DNA of 64,000 nt from positions 96,001 through 160,000 of IMG/VR virus record IMGVR_UViG_3300028920_002946; one strand, 5' to 3'. Origin of the DNA: a virus. The position numbers and the translations under genes were made by a program. The stretch's first letter is position 1; every line of letters starts with the position of its first letter. The notes under the pieces were generated by a model. It did not search any database. It had not been told where the DNA came from and saw nothing but the letters and a program-made list of their open reading frames with translations. This document shows positions 36,874 through 45,875 of this stretch, piece after piece.

Positions 36874-36934
36874 CCCTCGAGGCCCCGTGAGCGGGGGCCT
36901 GCGGCTGTATGCTTTAAGCGAACGATTGTATGCC

Positions 36935-39900
36935 ATGACCATACGATACGGCAGCGTGTGCAGCGGGATAGAGGCGGCGACGGTCGCGTGGCACCCCCTG
37001 GGGTGGGAGCCGGCCTGGTTCAGCGAAATCGAGGCGTTCCCGAAGGAGGTGCTGAGGCACCATTACCCGCACGTCCCCGACTTGGGGGACATGACCAGGA
37101 TAGCCACGGCGATCCGTGGCGGGACGGTCGAGGCCCCGGATGTGCTGGTGGGCGGGACGCCGTGCTTCACCGAGGACACGGTAGTGTTGACCAAGCGCGG
37201 GTTGCTGCCAATTAACGAGGTGGTGCCCGGAGATTGGGCGTGGACACACCAAAACAGGTGGAGAAGGGTTGTCGCCTCCATGTCGAGGCTGGCGGACACC
37301 ATCGTCCTCAAGGGACAGGGCCACCACGGCCTTGAGACGACCATGGAACACCCCTTCCTTGCCAGGGAGAAGAAATCGAGGACGACCCGAAAAAACGGCA
37401 AACCCATTCGAAAGACATGGGTAGAACCCCCTGAGTGGGTTGATGCCTATGCCATGAGCGGATCGTTTTGGGCCACGCCGAGTCACATCAACAAGATCCA
37501 AATGCCGAAGTTCAAACTCCGCAGTAGCGAAGGCCGCAATCTGCCAAACGGATTCGACGAGGACTTCTTCTGGTTTTTGGGGGCCTGGGTAGGCGATGGC
37601 TGGCTACGCACAGATCAAAGGTCTAACAGGCCAAAAGGCCAGATAAACGGGCACGTGCTTCTTTGTGGAAACAAAAAAGACCGTGAATTCCTGGAGGGCA
37701 AGATAGCCAAGACGGGCCTGTCGGCATCCGTTGCAAATGAACGAACAACTGTGCGCTTCCAGATATCGTCAAAGCCCCTCTGCCGATGGATCGAGAGGCA
37801 CTTTGGCAGATATGCCGACGGTAAGAAAATACCAGCATGGATGTTCGGGGCTCCCGAAAAAATCAGAAATGCATTCCTTGACGGATACATGTTTGCCGAC
37901 GGCGGCCGCTACACACAGCCAAAAGGCGGTGGAAAGCTGTACAGGTCCGCATCCATCAACAGGCACCTCGTGGTTGGTCTCAAGATGCTGTACGCCACCC
38001 TCGGACGCGCTTCCACTGTTGTGCGCTGCTCCCCGAAAAGGGACCTCAAGATAGAGGGTAGAAAGGTCAAGGAAAGACCGTTCTACCAGCTGTCCGTATA
38101 CGACAAGTCGCGCAGTGCGTTCTTCGCCGACGGGTTTCTGTGGGGAAAGGTGAGAAGAGTCTGTAAAGGCCGCAAAAAGATAAGAGTCTACAACATTGAG
38201 GTGGCGGACGACAATTCGTACGTCGCCGACGGGTACGTTGTACACAACTGTCAGGCGTTTTCGGTCGCGGGCCTTAGGAGGTCGCTTGACGACGAGCGGG
38301 GAAACCTGTCACTGGAGTACGTGAGGATAGCCGATGCAATTGACGACGTTCGATCTGTTCGAGGAGAACAGCCAGTCACCACCCTCTGGGAAAACGTCCC
38401 GGGGGTCCTCAACACCAAGGACAATGCCTTCGGATGCCTTTTGGGAGCACTTGCCGGCGAAGACGTGCCAATGGAACCGCCAGGGGGAAGATGGAAGAAC
38501 GCTGGTTGTGTGTTTGGACCCAAAAGGTCCATATGTTGGCGAGTACTTGATGCCCAATTTTTCGGTCTCGCCCAGAGACGCCGACGTGTGTTTGTTGTCT
38601 CAAGTGCTAGAGAGGGGTTCCGTCCACAGGAAATACTATTTGAGTTCGAAGGCGGCCGCGGGGATACTGCGCCGGGCCGAGAGGAGGGGCAAGGAGCTGC
38701 CGGGCCAGCTCAGGGCGGCGCTGGAGCAGGCGGCGCGAACACCTACGACCTGAGGGGCCACGGGGACGGCGACACGATCAACGCCCTCGTGGGCGACCAC
38801 GCCAACCGCCCCACCGACTACACCCCCGTCGTGACGCACGAGCCGGAGCCGCCCCGCGACACCGCGTCGACCCTGACGGCCCGCTACCCCGGCGCGAGCC
38901 ACCAGTGGGCGCCCCACAACGAGGCCGACAACCTCATACCCATGAAGTCGGTGCTCCCGTTCGACACCACGCAGGTGACATCCAAGTACAACTACAGCCA
39001 CCCGAAGGAGGGCGACCCGTGCCACCCGCTCGCTGCGGGCGCGCACCCGCCGGCGGTGGCCATGGGGTCGGAGACCGGGCAGGTGGCCGTGGACGTCCGC
39101 AACGGCACCCTGGGGGACACGTCGCAGACGGTGCAGTCCGGCGGGGCAAGCCCCAGCGAGAACACCATCCCGCACGTGATATCGCTGCAGGATGTCGGGG
39201 CGCGCGACAAGGCCCAGAACGGGCGCGGATGGAACGACGATGGTGTCAGCTACACGGTGGACGCCGCGGCCACGCAGGGTGTCGCCTTCGGGGCAGATCT
39301 GTCGCAGAAGGCCGAGGGGATAGGGTTCAAGGAGGAGCAGGCGCCGTGCGTGGCCCCCGGCACGCACCCCGGGCACGGGACTCATGCGATTGTACCCATG
39401 TCCGGCGAGACCGGGGCCTGCATGGCGTTCAGCTCCAAGGATGACGGACGAGACGCCTCGGAGGAGGTGTCGCCGACCCTGAGGGCCGGGGCGCACGACG
39501 GGAGCCACGCCAACAGCGGGGCCCCGCCGGCGGTCGTGACTGAGATGGAGCCGCTCGCCTTCAAGGCGGGGCAGGGTCCGAAGGCGAGGAGCCTGGGTAT
39601 AGGGGAGAACGTGTCGCCCACGCTCACCAGCGAAGACAGCGGGAACACGCGCACCCCGACCGTGGCGTTCCAGGCGTGCGGCGCCCGGGCCGACCCCGGC
39701 GTCAGCTGCAGCGAGGAGCGCGCCTACACCCTCCCGGCGAACCCGATGAGCGACCGCGGCCAGGCCGTGGCCTTCAAGTCGAGCCACTACACCAGGGGCA
39801 AGGACGGGGCGCCGTCGGAGGTCTGCCCGCCCCCGACGAAGGAGGCGGACAAGGGCGACCAGGACCCGCTCGTGCTCGCCGGCGACGAGCCGCCCGCCCG

Positions 39901-40114
39901 CAGGGTCTACCAGGTGCGCAGGCTCACTGCTCGTGAATGCGAGCGTTTGCAAGGGTTCCCGGACGACTACACCCGGATACCGTGGAGGAAAAAGGGGGCG
40001 GAGGACTGCCCGGATGGCCCCAGGTACAAAAGCCTTGGTAACAGCATGGCCGTCACGGTCATGGCGTGGATAGGCCGGAGGATAGACGCTCACCTAAAAG
40101 GCGGCACCGCATGA
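36935..40114 (+). CDS. dcm: C5-cytosine DNA methyltransferase with intein and long modular variable region
   Basis: Motif I SVCSGIEA, IV GGTP-[intein]-CQAFS, VI WENV, VIII QRRRRVF, IX VRRLTARECERLQGFPD, X YKSLGNSM. Confidence 0.92.
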   Translation: MTIRYGSVCSGIEAATVAWHPLGWEPAWFSEIEAFPKEVLRHHYPHVPDLGDMTRIATAIRGGTVEAPDVLVGGTPCFTEDTVVLTKRGLLPINEVVPGDWAWTHQNRWRRVVASMSRLADTIVLKGQGHHGLETTMEHPFLAREKKSRTTRKNGKPIRKTWVEPPEWVDAYAMSGSFWATPSHINKIQMPKFKLRSSEGRNLPNGFDEDFFWFLGAWVGDGWLRTDQRSNRPKGQINGHVLLCGNKKDREFLEGKIAKTGLSASVANERTTVRFQISSKPLCRWIERHFGRYADGKKIPAWMFGAPEKIRNAFLDGYMFADGGRYTQPKGGGKLYRSASINRHLVVGLKMLYATLGRASTVVRCSPKRDLKIEGRKVKERPFYQLSVYDKSRSAFFADGFLWGKVRRVCKGRKKIRVYNIEVADDNSYVADGYVVHNCQAFSVAGLRRSLDDERGNLSLEYVRIADAIDDVRSVRGEQPVTTLWENVPGVLNTKDNAFGCLLGALAGEDVPMEPPGGRWKNAGCVFGPKRSICWRVLDAQFFGLAQRRRRVFVVSSAREGFRPQEILFEFEGGRGDTAPGREEGQGAAGPAQGGAGAGGANTYDLRGHGDGDTINALVGDHANRPTDYTPVVTHEPEPPRDTASTLTARYPGASHQWAPHNEADNLIPMKSVLPFDTTQVTSKYNYSHPKEGDPCHPLAAGAHPPAVAMGSETGQVAVDVRNGTLGDTSQTVQSGGASPSENTIPHVISLQDVGARDKAQNGRGWNDDGVSYTVDAAATQGVAFGADLSQKAEGIGFKEEQAPCVAPGTHPGHGTHAIVPMSGETGACMAFSSKDDGRDASEEVSPTLRAGAHDGSHANSGAPPAVVTEMEPLAFKAGQGPKARSLGIGENVSPTLTSEDSGNTRTPTVAFQACGARADPGVSCSEERAYTLPANPMSDRGQAVAFKSSHYTRGKDGAPSEVCPPPTKEADKGDQDPLVLAGDEPPARRVYQVRRLTARECERLQGFPDDYTRIPWRKKGAEDCPDGPRYKSLGNSMAVTVMAWIGRRIDAHLKGGTA
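37163..38248 (+). mobile_element. Intein (362 aa) with LAGLIDADG endonuclease at the MTase catalytic Cys
   Basis: CFTEDTVVL start, TTMEHPF block B, FLGAWVGDG and FLDGYMFADG, ends YVVHN before Cys+1 of PCQ. Confidence 0.93.
38334..38753 (+). CDS. Overlapping +1-frame ORF inside dcm (putative accessory MTase polypeptide)
   Basis: GAGGA RBS 6 nt before ATG; 139 codons open in +1 frame; C-terminus LLSQVLE..V.RKYYLS..AAGILRRAERRGKELP resembles the post-motif-VIII segment of C5-MTases. Confidence 0.6.
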   Translation: MQLTTFDLFEENSQSPPSGKTSRGSSTPRTMPSDAFWEHLPAKTCQWNRQGEDGRTLVVCLDPKGPYVGEYLMPNFSVSPRDADVCLLSQVLERGSVHRKYYLSSKAAAGILRRAERRGKELPGQLRAALEQAARTPTT

Positions 40115-41177: not shown

Positions 41178-43463
41178 TTGGACACGATAAAAGGCGTGGT
41201 GCAGAGGATAGTGTACGAGGCGGGCTCCAGCGACTTCAAGGTCTTCAGGCTGCGCCGCAAGGACAGATCGATCATATCGGTGACGGGCGACTTCCCGAGC
41301 CTGATACAGGGCGCCGCCATCGAGGTGCACGGCAACTTCAAGACCCACCCGAAGTACGGCGTGGGGTTCAAGGCCGACGCCCACACGCACACGCACGACG
41401 GGTCGGCGAGGGGGATGTGCCTGTACCTGATGTCGATCGCCAAATTCGTGGGTCCGGACAAGTCCGCGAGGCTCGCGGAGCACTTCGGGGAGGGCCTCGA
41501 GAAGGTCATCGAGAGCGAGCCGGACAGGCTCACGGAGGTCGAAGGCATCGGCCCGGGCGTGGCGTCGAGCATCGTCGAGGCTTGGGCCATGAACAAGACG
41601 CTCAAGGATGTCAAGATATTCCTGCACGGCCTCGGGCTGACCGACAGGCGCATCCGCAGGATACTGACGTCGTACGGGCCCGACAGCGAGAGTATTTTGA
41701 AGGAGGACCCCTGGAGCCTGACCGTGCACGGGTTCGGGTTCGGGACGTGCGACCACATCGCGCAGAGGCTCGGCAAGGACAGGGGCGATCCGCTGCGCTG
41801 GCGCGGGTTCACGGTTCACGCGCTCGCGAAGTGCTCCGGGGCGGGCCACCTGTTCCTGACCCGCGACAACCTCATCGCCGCCTACAACCAATACAGCACC
41901 GCGTCGCAGTGGCCGTTCATGGACGGGGAGATACTGTGGGGGCACATCGAGCCGCACATCGGGTCCGCCGTGTCCCTCGGCATGGTGGTCGTCGACGGCC
42001 CGCGGCTGTACGGCACCCCCTCGTTTTTCCACGAGAGCGAGTCGGCCCGCCTCGTCCACAAGATGCTCTCCACGGACGGGAAGCTGGACCTGGGCAGGGT
42101 AAACCCCGACAAGTTCATCGGGAAATACGAGGAGCTGGAGGGCATCACCCTCTCGGACGCGCAGCGGGACGCCGTCCGCTCCTTCCTGACCGACAAGATG
42201 CTCATCATCACGGGCGGCCCGGGGACGGGCAAGACGACCATAGTCCGCGCCCTTGTGTCCATCCTGAGCATGCTCAACGCCTCCTTCGAGCTGCTGACGC
42301 CGACGGGCATCTCCGCGAAGAAGCTCGGCACGACGGCGGGGTGCCCGGCCTACACGATACACCGGCGGCTCGGCTACAAGGGGGATCGGTGGGACTTCAA
42401 CGCCCTCGTCAAGTACCCGACGCAGGCCGTCATAGTCGACGAGACGTCCATGGTGGACCAGGAGGTGCTGTACAGGCTGCTGTCGGCGCTCCTGCCGTCC
42501 ACGAAGATCGTGTTCGTCGGCGACAACGACCAGCTCCCGTCCGTCGGCCCGGGGTCGGTGCTGCGGGAGCTGATCGAGTCGGGGTGCGTCAAGACGATAT
42601 TCCTGGACAAGATATTCAGGCAGGAGCGCCAGTCGGACATCATCAAGGCGGCGAAGAGGATACGCGACGGGGACCCCGACCTGTCCCTGTTCAAGGCCGA
42701 CAAGGCGGCCGACATATGGCTCGTCCGGGGCAGGGACCACTCGGCGCTGGAGAGGACGGTCGTGTCGCTGGCGACGCAGATCATGGCGCACAACCGGGCC
42801 TCCGCGGACAAGAAGCACTTCCAGATCATAACGCCTCGCAACAGCGGCCCGCTGAGCGTGGACTCCCTGAACGAGGCCCTGCAGGCGGCCCTGAACCCGC
42901 CGTCGCCCGACAAGAAGGAGTTCATGGTGAACCGGGTTCCGATACGCAAGGGCGACCGGGTCATCGTGAAGAAGAACAACTACCAGCTGGAGGTGTTCAA
43001 CGGCGACATCGGCAAGGTGGCGTTCGTGACGCCCGACCACGTGACCGTGGACATAGAGGATTACAACGATGCGACCCGGCGAGTGGACATACCGATGCGC
43101 GAGGCCGACGAAATGCTGCGGATGGCGTATGCCATAACGGTGCACCGGGCGCAGGGCCTGGAGTACCCGCTGGTGATCATGCCGTTCGTGCAGGCCCACG
43201 GCCGCATGCTCCTGCAGCGCAACCTCCTCTACACGGCCTTGACGCGCGCAAAGCGCAAGGTCATAGTGCTGGGGCAGGCGAGCGCCTTGGAGAAGGCGAT
43301 AGCGAACGACAGGATACAGCGCAGGAACACCCTCCTCGCGGAGCGCATCAGGCAGTGGGGGAGGGGCGAGGGGCGCACGCTTCGGTCGCTGTTCCCGAAC
43401 CCGGAGGATTACAGAGCGGCCGAAACCCTGAAAAGGCTGCTTTCGTACGAGGCAAACTCCTGA
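41178..43463 (+). CDS. recD2: RecD2/TraA-like SF1B helicase
   Basis: N-terminal OB/HhH region, ITGGPGTGKTT, VIVDETSM, VGDNDQLPSVG, YAITVHRAQG, LLYTALTRA. Confidence 0.93.
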   Translation: MDTIKGVVQRIVYEAGSSDFKVFRLRRKDRSIISVTGDFPSLIQGAAIEVHGNFKTHPKYGVGFKADAHTHTHDGSARGMCLYLMSIAKFVGPDKSARLAEHFGEGLEKVIESEPDRLTEVEGIGPGVASSIVEAWAMNKTLKDVKIFLHGLGLTDRRIRRILTSYGPDSESILKEDPWSLTVHGFGFGTCDHIAQRLGKDRGDPLRWRGFTVHALAKCSGAGHLFLTRDNLIAAYNQYSTASQWPFMDGEILWGHIEPHIGSAVSLGMVVVDGPRLYGTPSFFHESESARLVHKMLSTDGKLDLGRVNPDKFIGKYEELEGITLSDAQRDAVRSFLTDKMLIITGGPGTGKTTIVRALVSILSMLNASFELLTPTGISAKKLGTTAGCPAYTIHRRLGYKGDRWDFNALVKYPTQAVIVDETSMVDQEVLYRLLSALLPSTKIVFVGDNDQLPSVGPGSVLRELIESGCVKTIFLDKIFRQERQSDIIKAAKRIRDGDPDLSLFKADKAADIWLVRGRDHSALERTVVSLATQIMAHNRASADKKHFQIITPRNSGPLSVDSLNEALQAALNPPSPDKKEFMVNRVPIRKGDRVIVKKNNYQLEVFNGDIGKVAFVTPDHVTVDIEDYNDATRRVDIPMREADEMLRMAYAITVHRAQGLEYPLVIMPFVQAHGRMLLQRNLLYTALTRAKRKVIVLGQASALEKAIANDRIQRRNTLLAERIRQWGRGEGRTLRSLFPNPEDYRAAETLKRLLSYEANS

Positions 43464-44983
43464 TGCCCGGCGTGTACTACAACGAGATAGATCCCAAGGC
43501 CGCCGCATGGTTGAGGCAGCTAATGGAGGACGGTCTGATACCCAGGGGGGTAGTCGATGAACGAAGCATCGCGGAGGTTGGAGACGATGAACCTCTTCGA
43601 TACACCCAATGCCACTTCTTCGCAGGCATCGGGGGGTGGGCAAGGAGCCTCCGGCTCGCGGGGTGGCCGGAGGACAGGCCAATCTGGACAGGGTCGTGCC
43701 CCTGCCAGCCGTTCTCGAACGCCGGTAAGCGAAAAGGTGCGGGCGATTCGCGCCACCTCTGGCCAGAGTTCTTCCGCCTCATCGAGGAGTGTCGACCTCC
43801 AACTGTCGTTGGAGAGCAGGTTGCGAGCGCGGATGGGCGCCTCTGGCTCGCCGGAGTACGGGCTGATCTGGAGACATTGGGATATGGCGTTGGGGGCGCC
43901 GATCTGTGCGCTGCGGGGGTCGGTGCCCCGCACATCAGGCAACGGCTCTGGTGGGTCGCAGACTCCGACGGCGGGGGCCCAGCGCAAGAGCAGGCGGGCG
44001 ATAATGAAGTCGGTGGACAACGGCCGGAGGTCGGGCGGCGGTCAGTCAAGCTCGCCGGGCCTGGGGCAGGGGGCGGAGCCGACCAGGGGGAAGTCGGGGC
44101 TGCAGGACGCGGCGGGGTGGCCCACGCCACAGACGTACGACGTGGGCGAGGCCCGCAAGGACAGAATGCCAGGGCAGATGCCGACCCACTCGTATCGTTG
44201 GAATCTGAAGGATGCGGCGCAGATAGTGGACAACAGGGCCGGGTGGCGGTCCCCAAATCTCGGGAGCGGGATAACGCTGGACAGGCTGGTGACGAAGGAC
44301 GGGGAGCCGTGGACTCCGGGTCAGAGGGCCTACGACAAGGACACGGGAAGGCTGTGCGAGGTGGGCCTGGACCAGGAGGTGCAGCTGGCGGGGTGGCTCA
44401 GCCCGCAGGCGGACGACTCGAGAGGGGTCGGCGGGGCCGGGAGCAGGGAGAACCACCAGTCGATGCTCCACCACCAGGTGCAAAAGGCGGAGGGCGCGGC
44501 GGGGTGGCCGACGGCCCGGGCGACGGATTCGATAGTCCGGCACAGCCAGCGGTGGATGAGGAAGCGGATCGAGGAGCACAGGGACGTGGATTTGACGACG
44601 ATGGCGAACACGGCGGGGTATCCGACGCCGAGGACGGTGACGGGCGGCCCCGAGAGCGGAGAGAGGAAAAAGGAGCTGGGGAGGACGAAGAGCGGCGGGG
44701 GCGACCTGCAGTCGGCGGCGCTCCTGTTTGGAACGGGCCAACCGAGTGGCACATCTGCTCAGACGGGAAGGCCAGGAGGATTCCGGCTCAATCCGTTCTT
44801 CGCGGGGTGGATGATGGGATACCCGAGGGAATGGACCTTTTCGGGGCTGAGGGCTGTTACCCGCTCGCCCGGAAAATCGAAGGGCGGTCGCCAATCCTCA
44901 AAGGGTACGGCAACGCGATAGTGCCGCAGGTCGGCGCGGAGTTTGTCATGGCCTATTTGGAAACGACCGAAAGCGCGAGGTAG
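43463..44983 (+). CDS. C5-MTase alpha-type subunit 1 (M.EcoHK31I-like)
   Basis: YYNEIDP, HFFAGIGGW, GSCPCQPFS, GEQV, HIRQRL, long G/R/E-rich linker, LKGYGNAIVPQV; no motif IX in this frame. Confidence 0.88.
   Translation: MPGVYYNEIDPKAAAWLRQLMEDGLIPRGVVDERSIAEVGDDEPLRYTQCHFFAGIGGWARSLRLAGWPEDRPIWTGSCPCQPFSNAGKRKGAGDSRHLWPEFFRLIEECRPPTVVGEQVASADGRLWLAGVRADLETLGYGVGGADLCAAGVGAPHIRQRLWWVADSDGGGPAQEQAGDNEVGGQRPEVGRRSVKLAGPGAGGGADQGEVGAAGRGGVAHATDVRRGRGPQGQNARADADPLVSLESEGCGADSGQQGRVAVPKSRERDNAGQAGDEGRGAVDSGSEGLRQGHGKAVRGGPGPGGAAGGVAQPAGGRLERGRRGREQGEPPVDAPPPGAKGGGRGGVADGPGDGFDSPAQPAVDEEADRGAQGRGFDDDGEHGGVSDAEDGDGRPRERREEKGAGEDEERRGRPAVGGAPVWNGPTEWHICSDGKARRIPAQSVLRGVDDGIPEGMDLFGAEGCYPLARKIEGRSPILKGYGNAIVPQVGAEFVMAYLETTESAR
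43577..43659 (+). repeat. 83-bp exact direct repeat, copy 1
   Basis: Identical to 45099-45181; spans the beta start codon and motif I. Confidence 0.9.
43587..44921 (+). CDS. C5-MTase beta-type subunit 1 in +1 frame with about six G[WY]PT[PA]-type modules
   Basis: GGAGG RBS 9 nt before ATG; modules QTPTA, GWPTP, GWRSP, GWLSP, GWPTA, GYPTP; motif-IX-like RLNPFFAGWMMGYPREW. Confidence 0.8.
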   Translation: MNLFDTPNATSSQASGGGQGASGSRGGRRTGQSGQGRAPASRSRTPVSEKVRAIRATSGQSSSASSRSVDLQLSLESRLRARMGASGSPEYGLIWRHWDMALGAPICALRGSVPRTSGNGSGGSQTPTAGAQRKSRRAIMKSVDNGRRSGGGQSSSPGLGQGAEPTRGKSGLQDAAGWPTPQTYDVGEARKDRMPGQMPTHSYRWNLKDAAQIVDNRAGWRSPNLGSGITLDRLVTKDGEPWTPGQRAYDKDTGRLCEVGLDQEVQLAGWLSPQADDSRGVGGAGSRENHQSMLHHQVQKAEGAAGWPTARATDSIVRHSQRWMRKRIEEHRDVDLTTMANTAGYPTPRTVTGGPESGERKKELGRTKSGGGDLQSAALLFGTGQPSGTSAQTGRPGGFRLNPFFAGWMMGYPREWTFSGLRAVTRSPGKSKGGRQSSKGTATR

Positions 44984-44984
44984 G

Positions 44985-45875
44985 ATGGGCGGGGCGTATT
45001 ACAACGAGATAGATCCCAAGGCCGCGGCATGGCTCAGGGAACTCATAAAGGAAGGGCTGATACCCGATGGAGAAGTCGATGAACGGAGCGTCGCCGAAGT
45101 TGGAGACGATGAACCTCTTCGATACACCCAATGCCACTTCTTCGCAGGCATCGGGGGGTGGGCAAGGAGCCTCCGGCTCGCAGGCTGGCCCGACGACCGA
45201 CCGGTCTGGACGGGATCCTGCCCCTGCCAGCCATTCTCCTGTGCGGGGCGCGGACTCGGAACTGACGACCCCCGCCATCTTTGGCCCCAGTTCAGAAGGC
45301 TCGTCGCCGAGTGCCGCCCTCCAGTCGTCTTTGGAGAGCAGGTTGCGAGCAAGGCTGGGCGCCTATGGCTCTCCGGAATACAGGCTGACCTGGAAGCATT
45401 GGGATATGCCGTCGGGGCTGCCGATCTGTGCGCTGCGGGCATCGGCGCGCCGCATATCAGGCAAAGGCTCTGGTGGGTGGCCGACTCCAATGCAGATGGA
45501 TCATTGGATGACGAACAATCCGAGGAAGGACGGGAGACAGAACCAACTTCCAAACATAGCGGCGCAGGCGGGATGGCCCAGCCCGATGGCAAACGAGAAG
45601 CGCAACCGCACGGTGAACCGGACGAACCCGGGGGCGGCGTGGGAGCCGAAGACAAGCCTGACGGACCTCGCATACATGGATTCTGGGCGGACGCAGCCTA
45701 CATCCCCTGTGCAGACGGAAAAGCGAGGCGCATTGAACCCGGAATTAGCCCGTTGGCTTATGGGGTATCCGGCAGAGTGGGGCTCCTGCGGGGCTACGGC
45801 AATGCGATCGTTCCAGAAGTCGCGGCGGAGTTCGTCCGGGCGTACACGGAGGTGAAGAATGAAAGTGCTGGTTGA
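44985..45875 (+). CDS. C5-MTase alpha-type subunit 2
   Basis: Paralogue of 43463: same motifs, short linker, LRGYGNAIVPEV. Confidence 0.88.
   Translation: MGGAYYNEIDPKAAAWLRELIKEGLIPDGEVDERSVAEVGDDEPLRYTQCHFFAGIGGWARSLRLAGWPDDRPVWTGSCPCQPFSCAGRGLGTDDPRHLWPQFRRLVAECRPPVVFGEQVASKAGRLWLSGIQADLEALGYAVGAADLCAAGIGAPHIRQRLWWVADSNADGSLDDEQSEEGRETEPTSKHSGAGGMAQPDGKREAQPHGEPDEPGGGVGAEDKPDGPRIHGFWADAAYIPCADGKARRIEPGISPLAYGVSGRVGLLRGYGNAIVPEVAAEFVRAYTEVKNESAG
45099..45181 (+). repeat. 83-bp exact direct repeat, copy 2
   Basis: Identical to 43577-43659. Confidence 0.9.
45109..45855 (+). CDS. C5-MTase beta-type subunit 2 in +1 frame with two modules
   Basis: MNLFDTPN start as in beta 1; GWPTP and GWPSP modules; ALNPELARWLMGYPAEW. 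Confidence 0.78.
   Translation: MNLFDTPNATSSQASGGGQGASGSQAGPTTDRSGRDPAPASHSPVRGADSELTTPAIFGPSSEGSSPSAALQSSLESRLRARLGAYGSPEYRLTWKHWDMPSGLPICALRASARRISGKGSGGWPTPMQMDHWMTNNPRKDGRQNQLPNIAAQAGWPSPMANEKRNRTVNRTNPGAAWEPKTSLTDLAYMDSGRTQPTSPVQTEKRGALNPELARWLMGYPAEWGSCGATAMRSFQKSRRSSSGRTRR

Follow-up and report, generated by a model that had tools for sequence, protein, structure and literature searches.

Described systems and the locus

The closest described counterpart in gene layout is the DNA cytosine-5 methyltransferase (C5-MTase) M.EcoHK31I of E. coli HK31 (YGGCCR; Lee, Kam and Shaw 1995). According to its descriptions, the alpha chain carries motifs I-VIII together with X, the beta chain carries motif IX, and the whole of beta is encoded inside alpha in a different frame (PMC2836561, PMC3404938). 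The closest counterparts in the arrangement of recognition units are the methyltransferases (MTases) of the Bacillus phages SPR, phi3T, rho11 and H2 and the SPbeta enzyme MtbP, which possess tandem target recognition domains (TRDs) and several specificities (PMC8936443). The locus described here consists of two tandem C5-MTase genes with nested reading frames in a window of 64,000 nucleotides of viral DNA (positions 96,001 to 160,000 of the IMG/VR record IMGVR_UViG_3300028920_002946; the window is this whole stretch, and coordinates refer to it). We consider it fairly probable that each of the two genes encodes a heterodimeric two-frame orphan C5-MTase, in which a module array on beta gives several specificities.

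As in M.EcoHK31I, the alphas of the window possess motifs I-VIII as well as X, and betas with motif IX are nested in the other frame. Compared by description only, M.EcoHK31I has its TRD predicted in alpha, a single specificity and a place in a restriction-modification system, whereas the window enzymes have a variable array in beta, the motif order II-III-I-IV, the status of orphan phage genes and tandem copies. With the Bacillus phage enzymes, whose tandem TRDs lie between motifs VIII and IX, they share tandem TRD-like units before motif IX. In those enzymes a single chain, read in one frame, keeps the canonical motif order, and its module heads are T-L; here the array belongs to a second subunit encoded in an overlapping frame, its heads are T-P and it reaches up to 15 units. 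The window enzymes resemble M.EcoHK31I in layout and most likely the Bacillus phage enzymes in recognition, and are strict members of neither group. M.AquI also consists of two subunits, the small one holding part of the variable region, motif IX and motif X (PMC3404938); motif IX on the small subunit is a shared feature, but motif X lies in alpha in the window enzymes. The Paracoccus proteins JCM7686_0772 and 2655, large orphan prophage C5-MTases under which many sites are protected, are described as single proteins of about 700 aa (PMC3925955).

The alphas and betas of the window belong to the PHROG 363 / PHROG 1008 family, which is known by annotation only: in the literature searched, which covered few subscription journals, no paper was found on its two-frame layout, its array or its motif order, nor any description of the order II-III-I-IV. 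The alpha/beta overlap (M.EcoHK31I) and tandem recognition domains (Bacillus phages) are already known; the combination of overlap and tandem array, the module shuffling and the motif swap appear to be undescribed.

Layout of the two genes

Alpha 1 (43463-44983, + strand, 506 aa) and its paralogue alpha 2 (44985-45875, +, 296 aa) are C5-cytosine MTase catalytic chains, both matching Pfam DNA_methylase (PF00145, E ~1e-13, above cut-off) and PHROG 363 (E 3e-71 and 2e-80). The catalytic PCQ and motif X are present in both, motif IX is absent. Beta 1 (43587-44921, +, 444 aa) and beta 2 (45109-45855, +, 248 aa) lie in the +1 frame, each nested entirely in its alpha, and match PHROG 1008 (E 1e-20 and 1e-21). 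Their first eight residues are the same, and a motif-IX-like segment closes each. The first-pass annotation, made from the letters of the window, had reported these motif contents, the nested betas with their common start and end, and the overlap of M.EcoHK31I type, and all of this stands; the alpha motifs, however, do not follow the canonical order, motifs II and III preceding motif I.

Along alpha 1 the order is II-III-I-IV-VI-VIII, followed by a low-complexity linker of about 250 aa, a conserved hairpin and motif X. The linker contains 66 G, 33 A, 29 R, 23 D and 22 E in 252 aa, and the double-open stretch at gene 1 measures 1335 nt, in line with the G/R/E-rich linker and the 1.3 kb open in both frames noted before. 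Beta 1 is composed of a conserved N-terminal helix and hairpin, six modules (one of them degenerate) and motif IX. It starts at an ATG with GGAGGT 8 nt upstream; a further in-frame ATG is located at 43557. Motif IX of beta 1 (44787-44835, +) overlaps the conserved pre-X segment of alpha 1, whose motif X lies at 44909 in the alpha frame, 3' of the beta motif; motif IX of beta 2 is found at 45733. Both motif IX calls are based on pattern and position.

The two gene copies are 81-86% identical across their first 500 nt. The alphas share 81% of nucleotides in the catalytic part and are mutual nearest relatives among the loci fetched for the survey below. An exact repeat of 83 bp (43577-43659 = 45099-45181, +) spans the beta start and alpha motif I, and the first 24 codons of beta 1 and beta 2 are identical. 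This identity run exceeds those of 190 of 194 homologue pairs of similar divergence, runs this long occurring in 4 of the 194, which points to recent gene conversion, although this stretch codes in both frames as well. Tandem gene pairs are rare (2 of 320 loci). A second genome (L086:1415-4496) possesses two two-frame MTase genes about 2.1 kb apart, with different arrays.

An assembly artefact or chimera was considered and rejected: a contig from the likely source run covers 43630-45128, which takes in array 1 and its junction with alpha 2, with 0 differences, and pieces of array 1 occur with 2-8 differences in runs of two other studies.

Both frames across the family

A total of 319 loci were fetched from viral, genome and metagenome collections, three quarters of them queried by the catalytic part alone, which avoids a length bias. 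Both frames are strictly open in 236 of 264 distinct full-length genes, and in 16 further genes the sole beta stop lies outside the core, so that both frames are intact in 252 of 264. Under synonymous recoding, about 7% (alpha over the array) and about 2% (beta over the catalytic part) would be expected to be open. A pseudogene or a simple frameshift was rejected on this comparison. For this genome alone, an open alpha frame across the array is not improbable by chance (P ~0.04-0.2). Module number in the 264-gene set ranges from 0 to 7 per gene, as counted by pattern search and hence approximately; this survey of module number with both frames open, which the first-pass annotation had proposed, bears out its expandable cassette.

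The family is very large. The beta profile matches 28,039 representatives at 50% identity, and the longest array (L486:2389-5691) comprises a 15-module beta of 834 aa within a 1095-aa alpha open through motif X, with about 2.5 kb read in two frames. The window copy is a good, not an extreme, example. In a sister family with canonical motif order, 54 of 64 genes share this two-frame layout, and 0-5 modules are present; such canonical-order two-frame C5-MTases (L321:1791-2531, L323:1746-2729, L325-L404) are found in Bacillus, Nostoc and many phages. Among GenBank phage records 183 match beta, nearly all with alpha alone annotated; in coliphage K1ind2 both open reading frames (ORFs) are annotated, as 'C-specific methylase' and 'Mte8-like protein'. 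A start codon with a Shine-Dalgarno-like word precedes 169 of 236 betas, a count made without a control set. A search for long in-frame fusions, itself weak evidence, returned four singletons and no fusion involving the catalytic domain. Singleton proteins longer than 1000 aa (P0005, P0006, P0008) that fuse beta with an SNF2 helicase or with a primase-like domain may be gene-calling read-through.

Selection in the two frames

For 178 pairs within module types, the ratio of nonsynonymous to synonymous substitution (dN/dS) comes to 0.16 when the beta frame is read and to 2.4 when the alpha frame is read. In pairs picked by DNA identity alone, differences at the three beta codon positions are 0.13/0.10/0.35, and amino-acid identity is 85% in beta and 59% in alpha. 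In the catalytic part, four-fold degenerate alpha sites are less variable under the beta overlap (entropy 1.81 -> 1.30 bits, p 2e-4), with entropy near 0 at several codons of the stretch 106-166. Judged from substitution patterns, beta is the functional product over the array and alpha the passenger; the alpha linker is modelled as disordered there, and its earlier description as a passive linker agrees with the dN/dS of 2.4 and the low-complexity composition. On the constraint at alpha four-fold sites, the dN/dS values and the codon-position pattern, the view of beta as a side effect of conservation in alpha was rejected as well. The variable loops are constrained alike in non-last and last modules (0.16 vs 0.14).

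The first-pass annotation attributed the open alpha frame to the GC content at third codon positions (GC3). In ordinary genes of this genome the +2 frame is indeed stop-poor (21 stops in ~3390 codons, against 116 in the +1 frame). As the main cause across the family the explanation was rejected: GC3 ranges from 0.37 to 0.90, its correlation with module number is weak (rho 0.14) and an array would be expected to contain about 3.5 stops, so that it is mainly selection for the downstream motif X that keeps alpha open. GC3 is a minor factor for the family and only eases array expansion.

Module arrays and their shuffling

Six modules are located in beta 1, all on the + strand. Module 0 (43956-44114) is degenerate, with the Trp lost and the tail altered, and shares 61% identity with an intact P0016 module; it is a probable pseudo-domain by its sequence. 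Module 1 (44115-44240) is followed by module 2 (44241-44390), which is 63% identical to a module of P0014 and related to the sole module of the canonical-order enzyme L332, by module 3 (44391-44501), by module 4 (44502-44615), for which no close relative was found among the modules compared, and by module 5 (44616-44726), 78-80% identical to modules in L112, L146 and L285. Beta 2 contains two modules (45475-45570 and 45571-45681, +). The two modules of beta 2 had been counted correctly before, while the 'about six' of beta 1 resolve into five intact modules and one degenerate. Multispecific MTases of Bacillus phages contain silent pseudo-domains, to which module 0 would be a parallel.

Across the family, 627 modules with a median length of 36 aa fall into 269 clusters, 48 of them with at least 3 members. 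Common module types turn up at the start, middle and end of arrays, beside varied neighbours, and 22 of 39 common types are found in both last and non-last position. Among gene pairs whose catalytic parts are at least 95% identical, only 46% have an identical array. L057 equals L028 plus one module, a clean single-module insertion, L015 and L021 differ by one swapped module, and L155, L157 and L158, more than 99% identical in the catalytic part, possess four, two and three modules respectively. The swapping postulated for the cassette is thus seen between near-identical genes. Loop types are 60-80% identical across distant genomes and under purifying selection, and K, R and G abound in the loops. 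Common to the module heads is a conserved DNA sequence of about 21 nt, which, to judge from its conservation, likely serves as a recombination site.

The modules lie directly 5' of motif IX in beta, and the TRD of C5-MTases sits directly before motif IX (PMC5944983). A module-head matrix built without its W and P columns scores above 8 bits in 46% of the variable regions of single-chain phage MTases, compared with 9% of shuffles, and picks TL motifs there, in keeping with the TRD resemblance first proposed for the modules. In SPbeta MtbP its top match is the TL motif at residue 313. Module heads read T-P where the TL type has T-L. These likenesses make a TRD role of the modules likely. The AlphaFold model of beta alone is poor (pLDDT 60, pTM 0.26), and a Foldseek search with it, uninformative for that model, gave no match; the beta profile found no match among PDB sequences, and an Atlas search with beta returned viral clusters only.

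Motif order in alpha

The alphas possess motif IV (PC), motifs VI and VIII and a class I Rossmann core, and in this respect are C5-MTases, but do not follow the canonical order from I to X. The motif II-III block of alpha 1 (43469-43594, +) is N-terminal and lies ahead of motif I (at about 43607-43660); alpha 2 has the same order. The N-terminus forms a strand-helix-strand block, and FxGxGG does not appear until residues 53-58; a match to canonical motif I, with an HH probability of 92%, covers residues 51-69. No motif-I-like segment is found in frame further upstream. The order II-III-I-IV is present in 225 of 236 relatives.

The model of alpha has pLDDT >90 over most of the core and nearly every block of residues 1-80, and its superposition on M.HhaI (Z 13.5, rmsd 2.9, 164 residues aligned) identifies a C5-MTase fold. 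Residues 1-2 of the model align with residues 33-34 of M.HhaI, 22-23 of M.HaeIII and 1162 of DNMT1, which we take to be the motif II strand, and the motif I hairpin of these three enzymes is skipped in every structural alignment. Profile and hidden Markov model matches between the N-terminal block and canonical enzymes are weak, motif II alone not scoring above shuffles, and because of this the motif II-III call relies on the model together with the structural alignment. On that basis the rewired topology II-III-I-IV of alpha is well supported, though not proven.

M.BssHII and other circularly permuted C5-MTases likewise have a non-canonical motif order, and the natural permutants in a REBASE survey are cut only in the variable region (PMC5944983); further classes of permutant have been engineered (PMC5944983). 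Unlike in these, motif I of the window alphas has moved between III and IV and motif X is still C-terminal, so that the arrangement is not a circular permutation. This order and the very large family size were missed by the first-pass annotation.

Genomic setting and other observations

The source virus record comprises 182,677 bases with 62% GC, and its best-matching sequencing run is a marine sediment metagenome. The MTase gene pair lies in a replication/recombination region, 3' of a RecD2-like helicase and 5' of a RecA-like gene (Pfam and PHROG matches). No restriction endonuclease gene adjoins the pair; its neighbours are the RecD2-like helicase and a small membrane protein, and a restriction-modification pair was rejected on this account. 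Upstream, the alpha 1 frame is open for a further 2 kb across the RecD2-like gene (41417-43462, +), where GC3 is 0.93 and the +2 frame of that gene is stop-free; this opening is probably a shadow ORF.

A third C5-MTase is located at 36887-40114 (+). It has canonical motif order, motifs IX and X in frame and several TL-type repeats, and an intein (Hint and LAGLIDADG matches) is inserted at its catalytic PC|Q. In its +1 frame, an ORF of 139 aa (38334-38753, +) is open in 73 of 73 relatives; the C-terminus of this ORF is conserved in 71 of 73 and resembles the segment of SPbeta MtbP after motif VIII. The gene with its nested ORF looks, by these sequence features, like a second, different two-frame split. 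A weak N6/N4 methyltransferase match, below the Pfam cut-off, lies outside the window (G000:C1:68235-68660, -). CTAG, GGWCC, AGGCCT and GGGCCC are depleted in the whole genome, which suggests restriction-site avoidance; these k-mers cannot be linked to modules.

Proposed mechanism and alternatives

In the reading we favour, one stretch of DNA in each gene would give rise to both chains of a heterodimeric orphan DNA cytosine-5 MTase. Alpha would bind S-adenosylmethionine (SAM) and carry out catalysis; beta, with an initiation of its own in the +1 frame, would dock on alpha, using its conserved N-terminal part together with motif IX, and supply DNA recognition as a row of TL-type modules of 25-50 aa. 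Each module would most likely read one target, the modules engaging DNA one at a time as in the Bacillus phage multispecific enzymes. Methylation of several sites, or broad methylation, would protect the phage from several host restriction enzymes. In-frame recombination between the module heads of ~21 nt would alter the arrays and with them, most likely, the set of methylated sites, and alpha would carry the array as a disordered passenger linker that needs only freedom from stops to reach motif X. From the lines of evidence above we infer that beta is translated and forms a complex with alpha, and that the enzymes are multispecific and serve against restriction. Crossed alpha/beta pairs may form, by analogy with M.EcoHK31I, because the first 24 beta codons are identical and the beta N-terminus of that enzyme mediates association. 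The proposal that such mixing widens specificity is not supported: if the recognition modules reside in beta, all beta modules together determine the sites, irrespective of the alpha bound; crossed pairs would then add no sites, and the gain from duplication would lie in more modules. The fuller statement, that a very large phage family possesses a hidden-frame beta with up to 15 plug-in modules of one target each, recombined between viruses, on an alpha fold rewired non-circularly, stands in our estimate evenly poised between true and false.

Several observations weigh against the favoured reading. The TRD likeness of the modules rests on one short motif, and module counts, made by pattern, are approximate. 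The motif IX profile matches single-chain enzymes weakly (HH probability 10%, E 0.003). In L487:23-2000, one of three very long arrays, a 10-module beta lies in an alpha that is stopped within the array, either as a pseudogene or through a sequence error. Tested related prophage C5-MTases have relaxed, not discrete, specificity (PMC3925955). The predicted TRD of M.EcoHK31I lies in alpha (PMC2836561, PMC3404938), and the alphas of the family possess a conserved segment ahead of motif X (W234, C242-E251), modelled as a hairpin, which could touch DNA.

The relaxed specificity of those relatives leads to an alternative with a minor but real share of probability, namely the same heterodimer with modules that add affinity or loosen recognition, giving a relaxed (e.g. 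CC-type) MTase. The Paracoccus enzymes JCM7686_0772 and 2655, of about 700 aa, partially protect many sites (PMC3925955, PMC5537653), and the modules are short with K/R/G-rich loops; discrete loop types under purifying selection, however, fit distinct recognition units better, and the Paracoccus pattern could itself be the sum of several modules. We regard it as unlikely that specificity resides in alpha, beta providing motif IX only and the modules, e.g., binding host defence proteins. This arrangement would agree with the TRD assigned to the large subunit of M.EcoHK31I (PMC2836561, PMC3404938) and with the modelled pre-X hairpin, but conservation of that segment extends through the whole family, as is not the case for a TRD, and no matching segment is evident in the canonical-order L321. 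The rest of the alpha variable region is unconstrained (dN/dS 2.4) and modelled as disordered, and it is the module heads that match TL motifs.

Just as low is our estimate for arrays in which only the module adjoining motif IX works and the others form a silent reserve moved by recombination. Conserved DNA heads permit such recombination, one module is degenerate and 22 of 39 types are both last and non-last; yet purifying selection acts on non-last modules and their loops just as it does on last ones, an equality that rapid turnover at the last position could mimic in part. Least probable of all is a +1 ribosomal frameshift after motif VIII that makes the working enzyme, with no independently started beta. 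It would yield the canonical single-chain order VIII-TRD-IX, but about 110 beta codons upstream of the junction are conserved and constrain alpha synonymous sites, motif X would still be needed from a second chain, and in M.EcoHK31I it is through the N-terminus of beta that association comes about (PMC2836561).

Implications

Annotation mostly misses beta because it lies in the second frame of an already called gene. The family is a clean natural case of overlapping-gene evolution, with one frame selected for function and the other for openness only, and the order II-III-I-IV would extend the plasticity of the C5-MTase fold beyond circular permutation. The module array in beta also bears on the true location of the TRD in M.EcoHK31I. 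If each module reads its own site, the arrays form a modular, quickly reshuffled phage anti-restriction system. There would then be hundreds of natural recognition units of 25-50 aa, a library of module-to-sequence pairs, and these units would be usable for a recognition code of C5-MTases and for building multi-site MTases.

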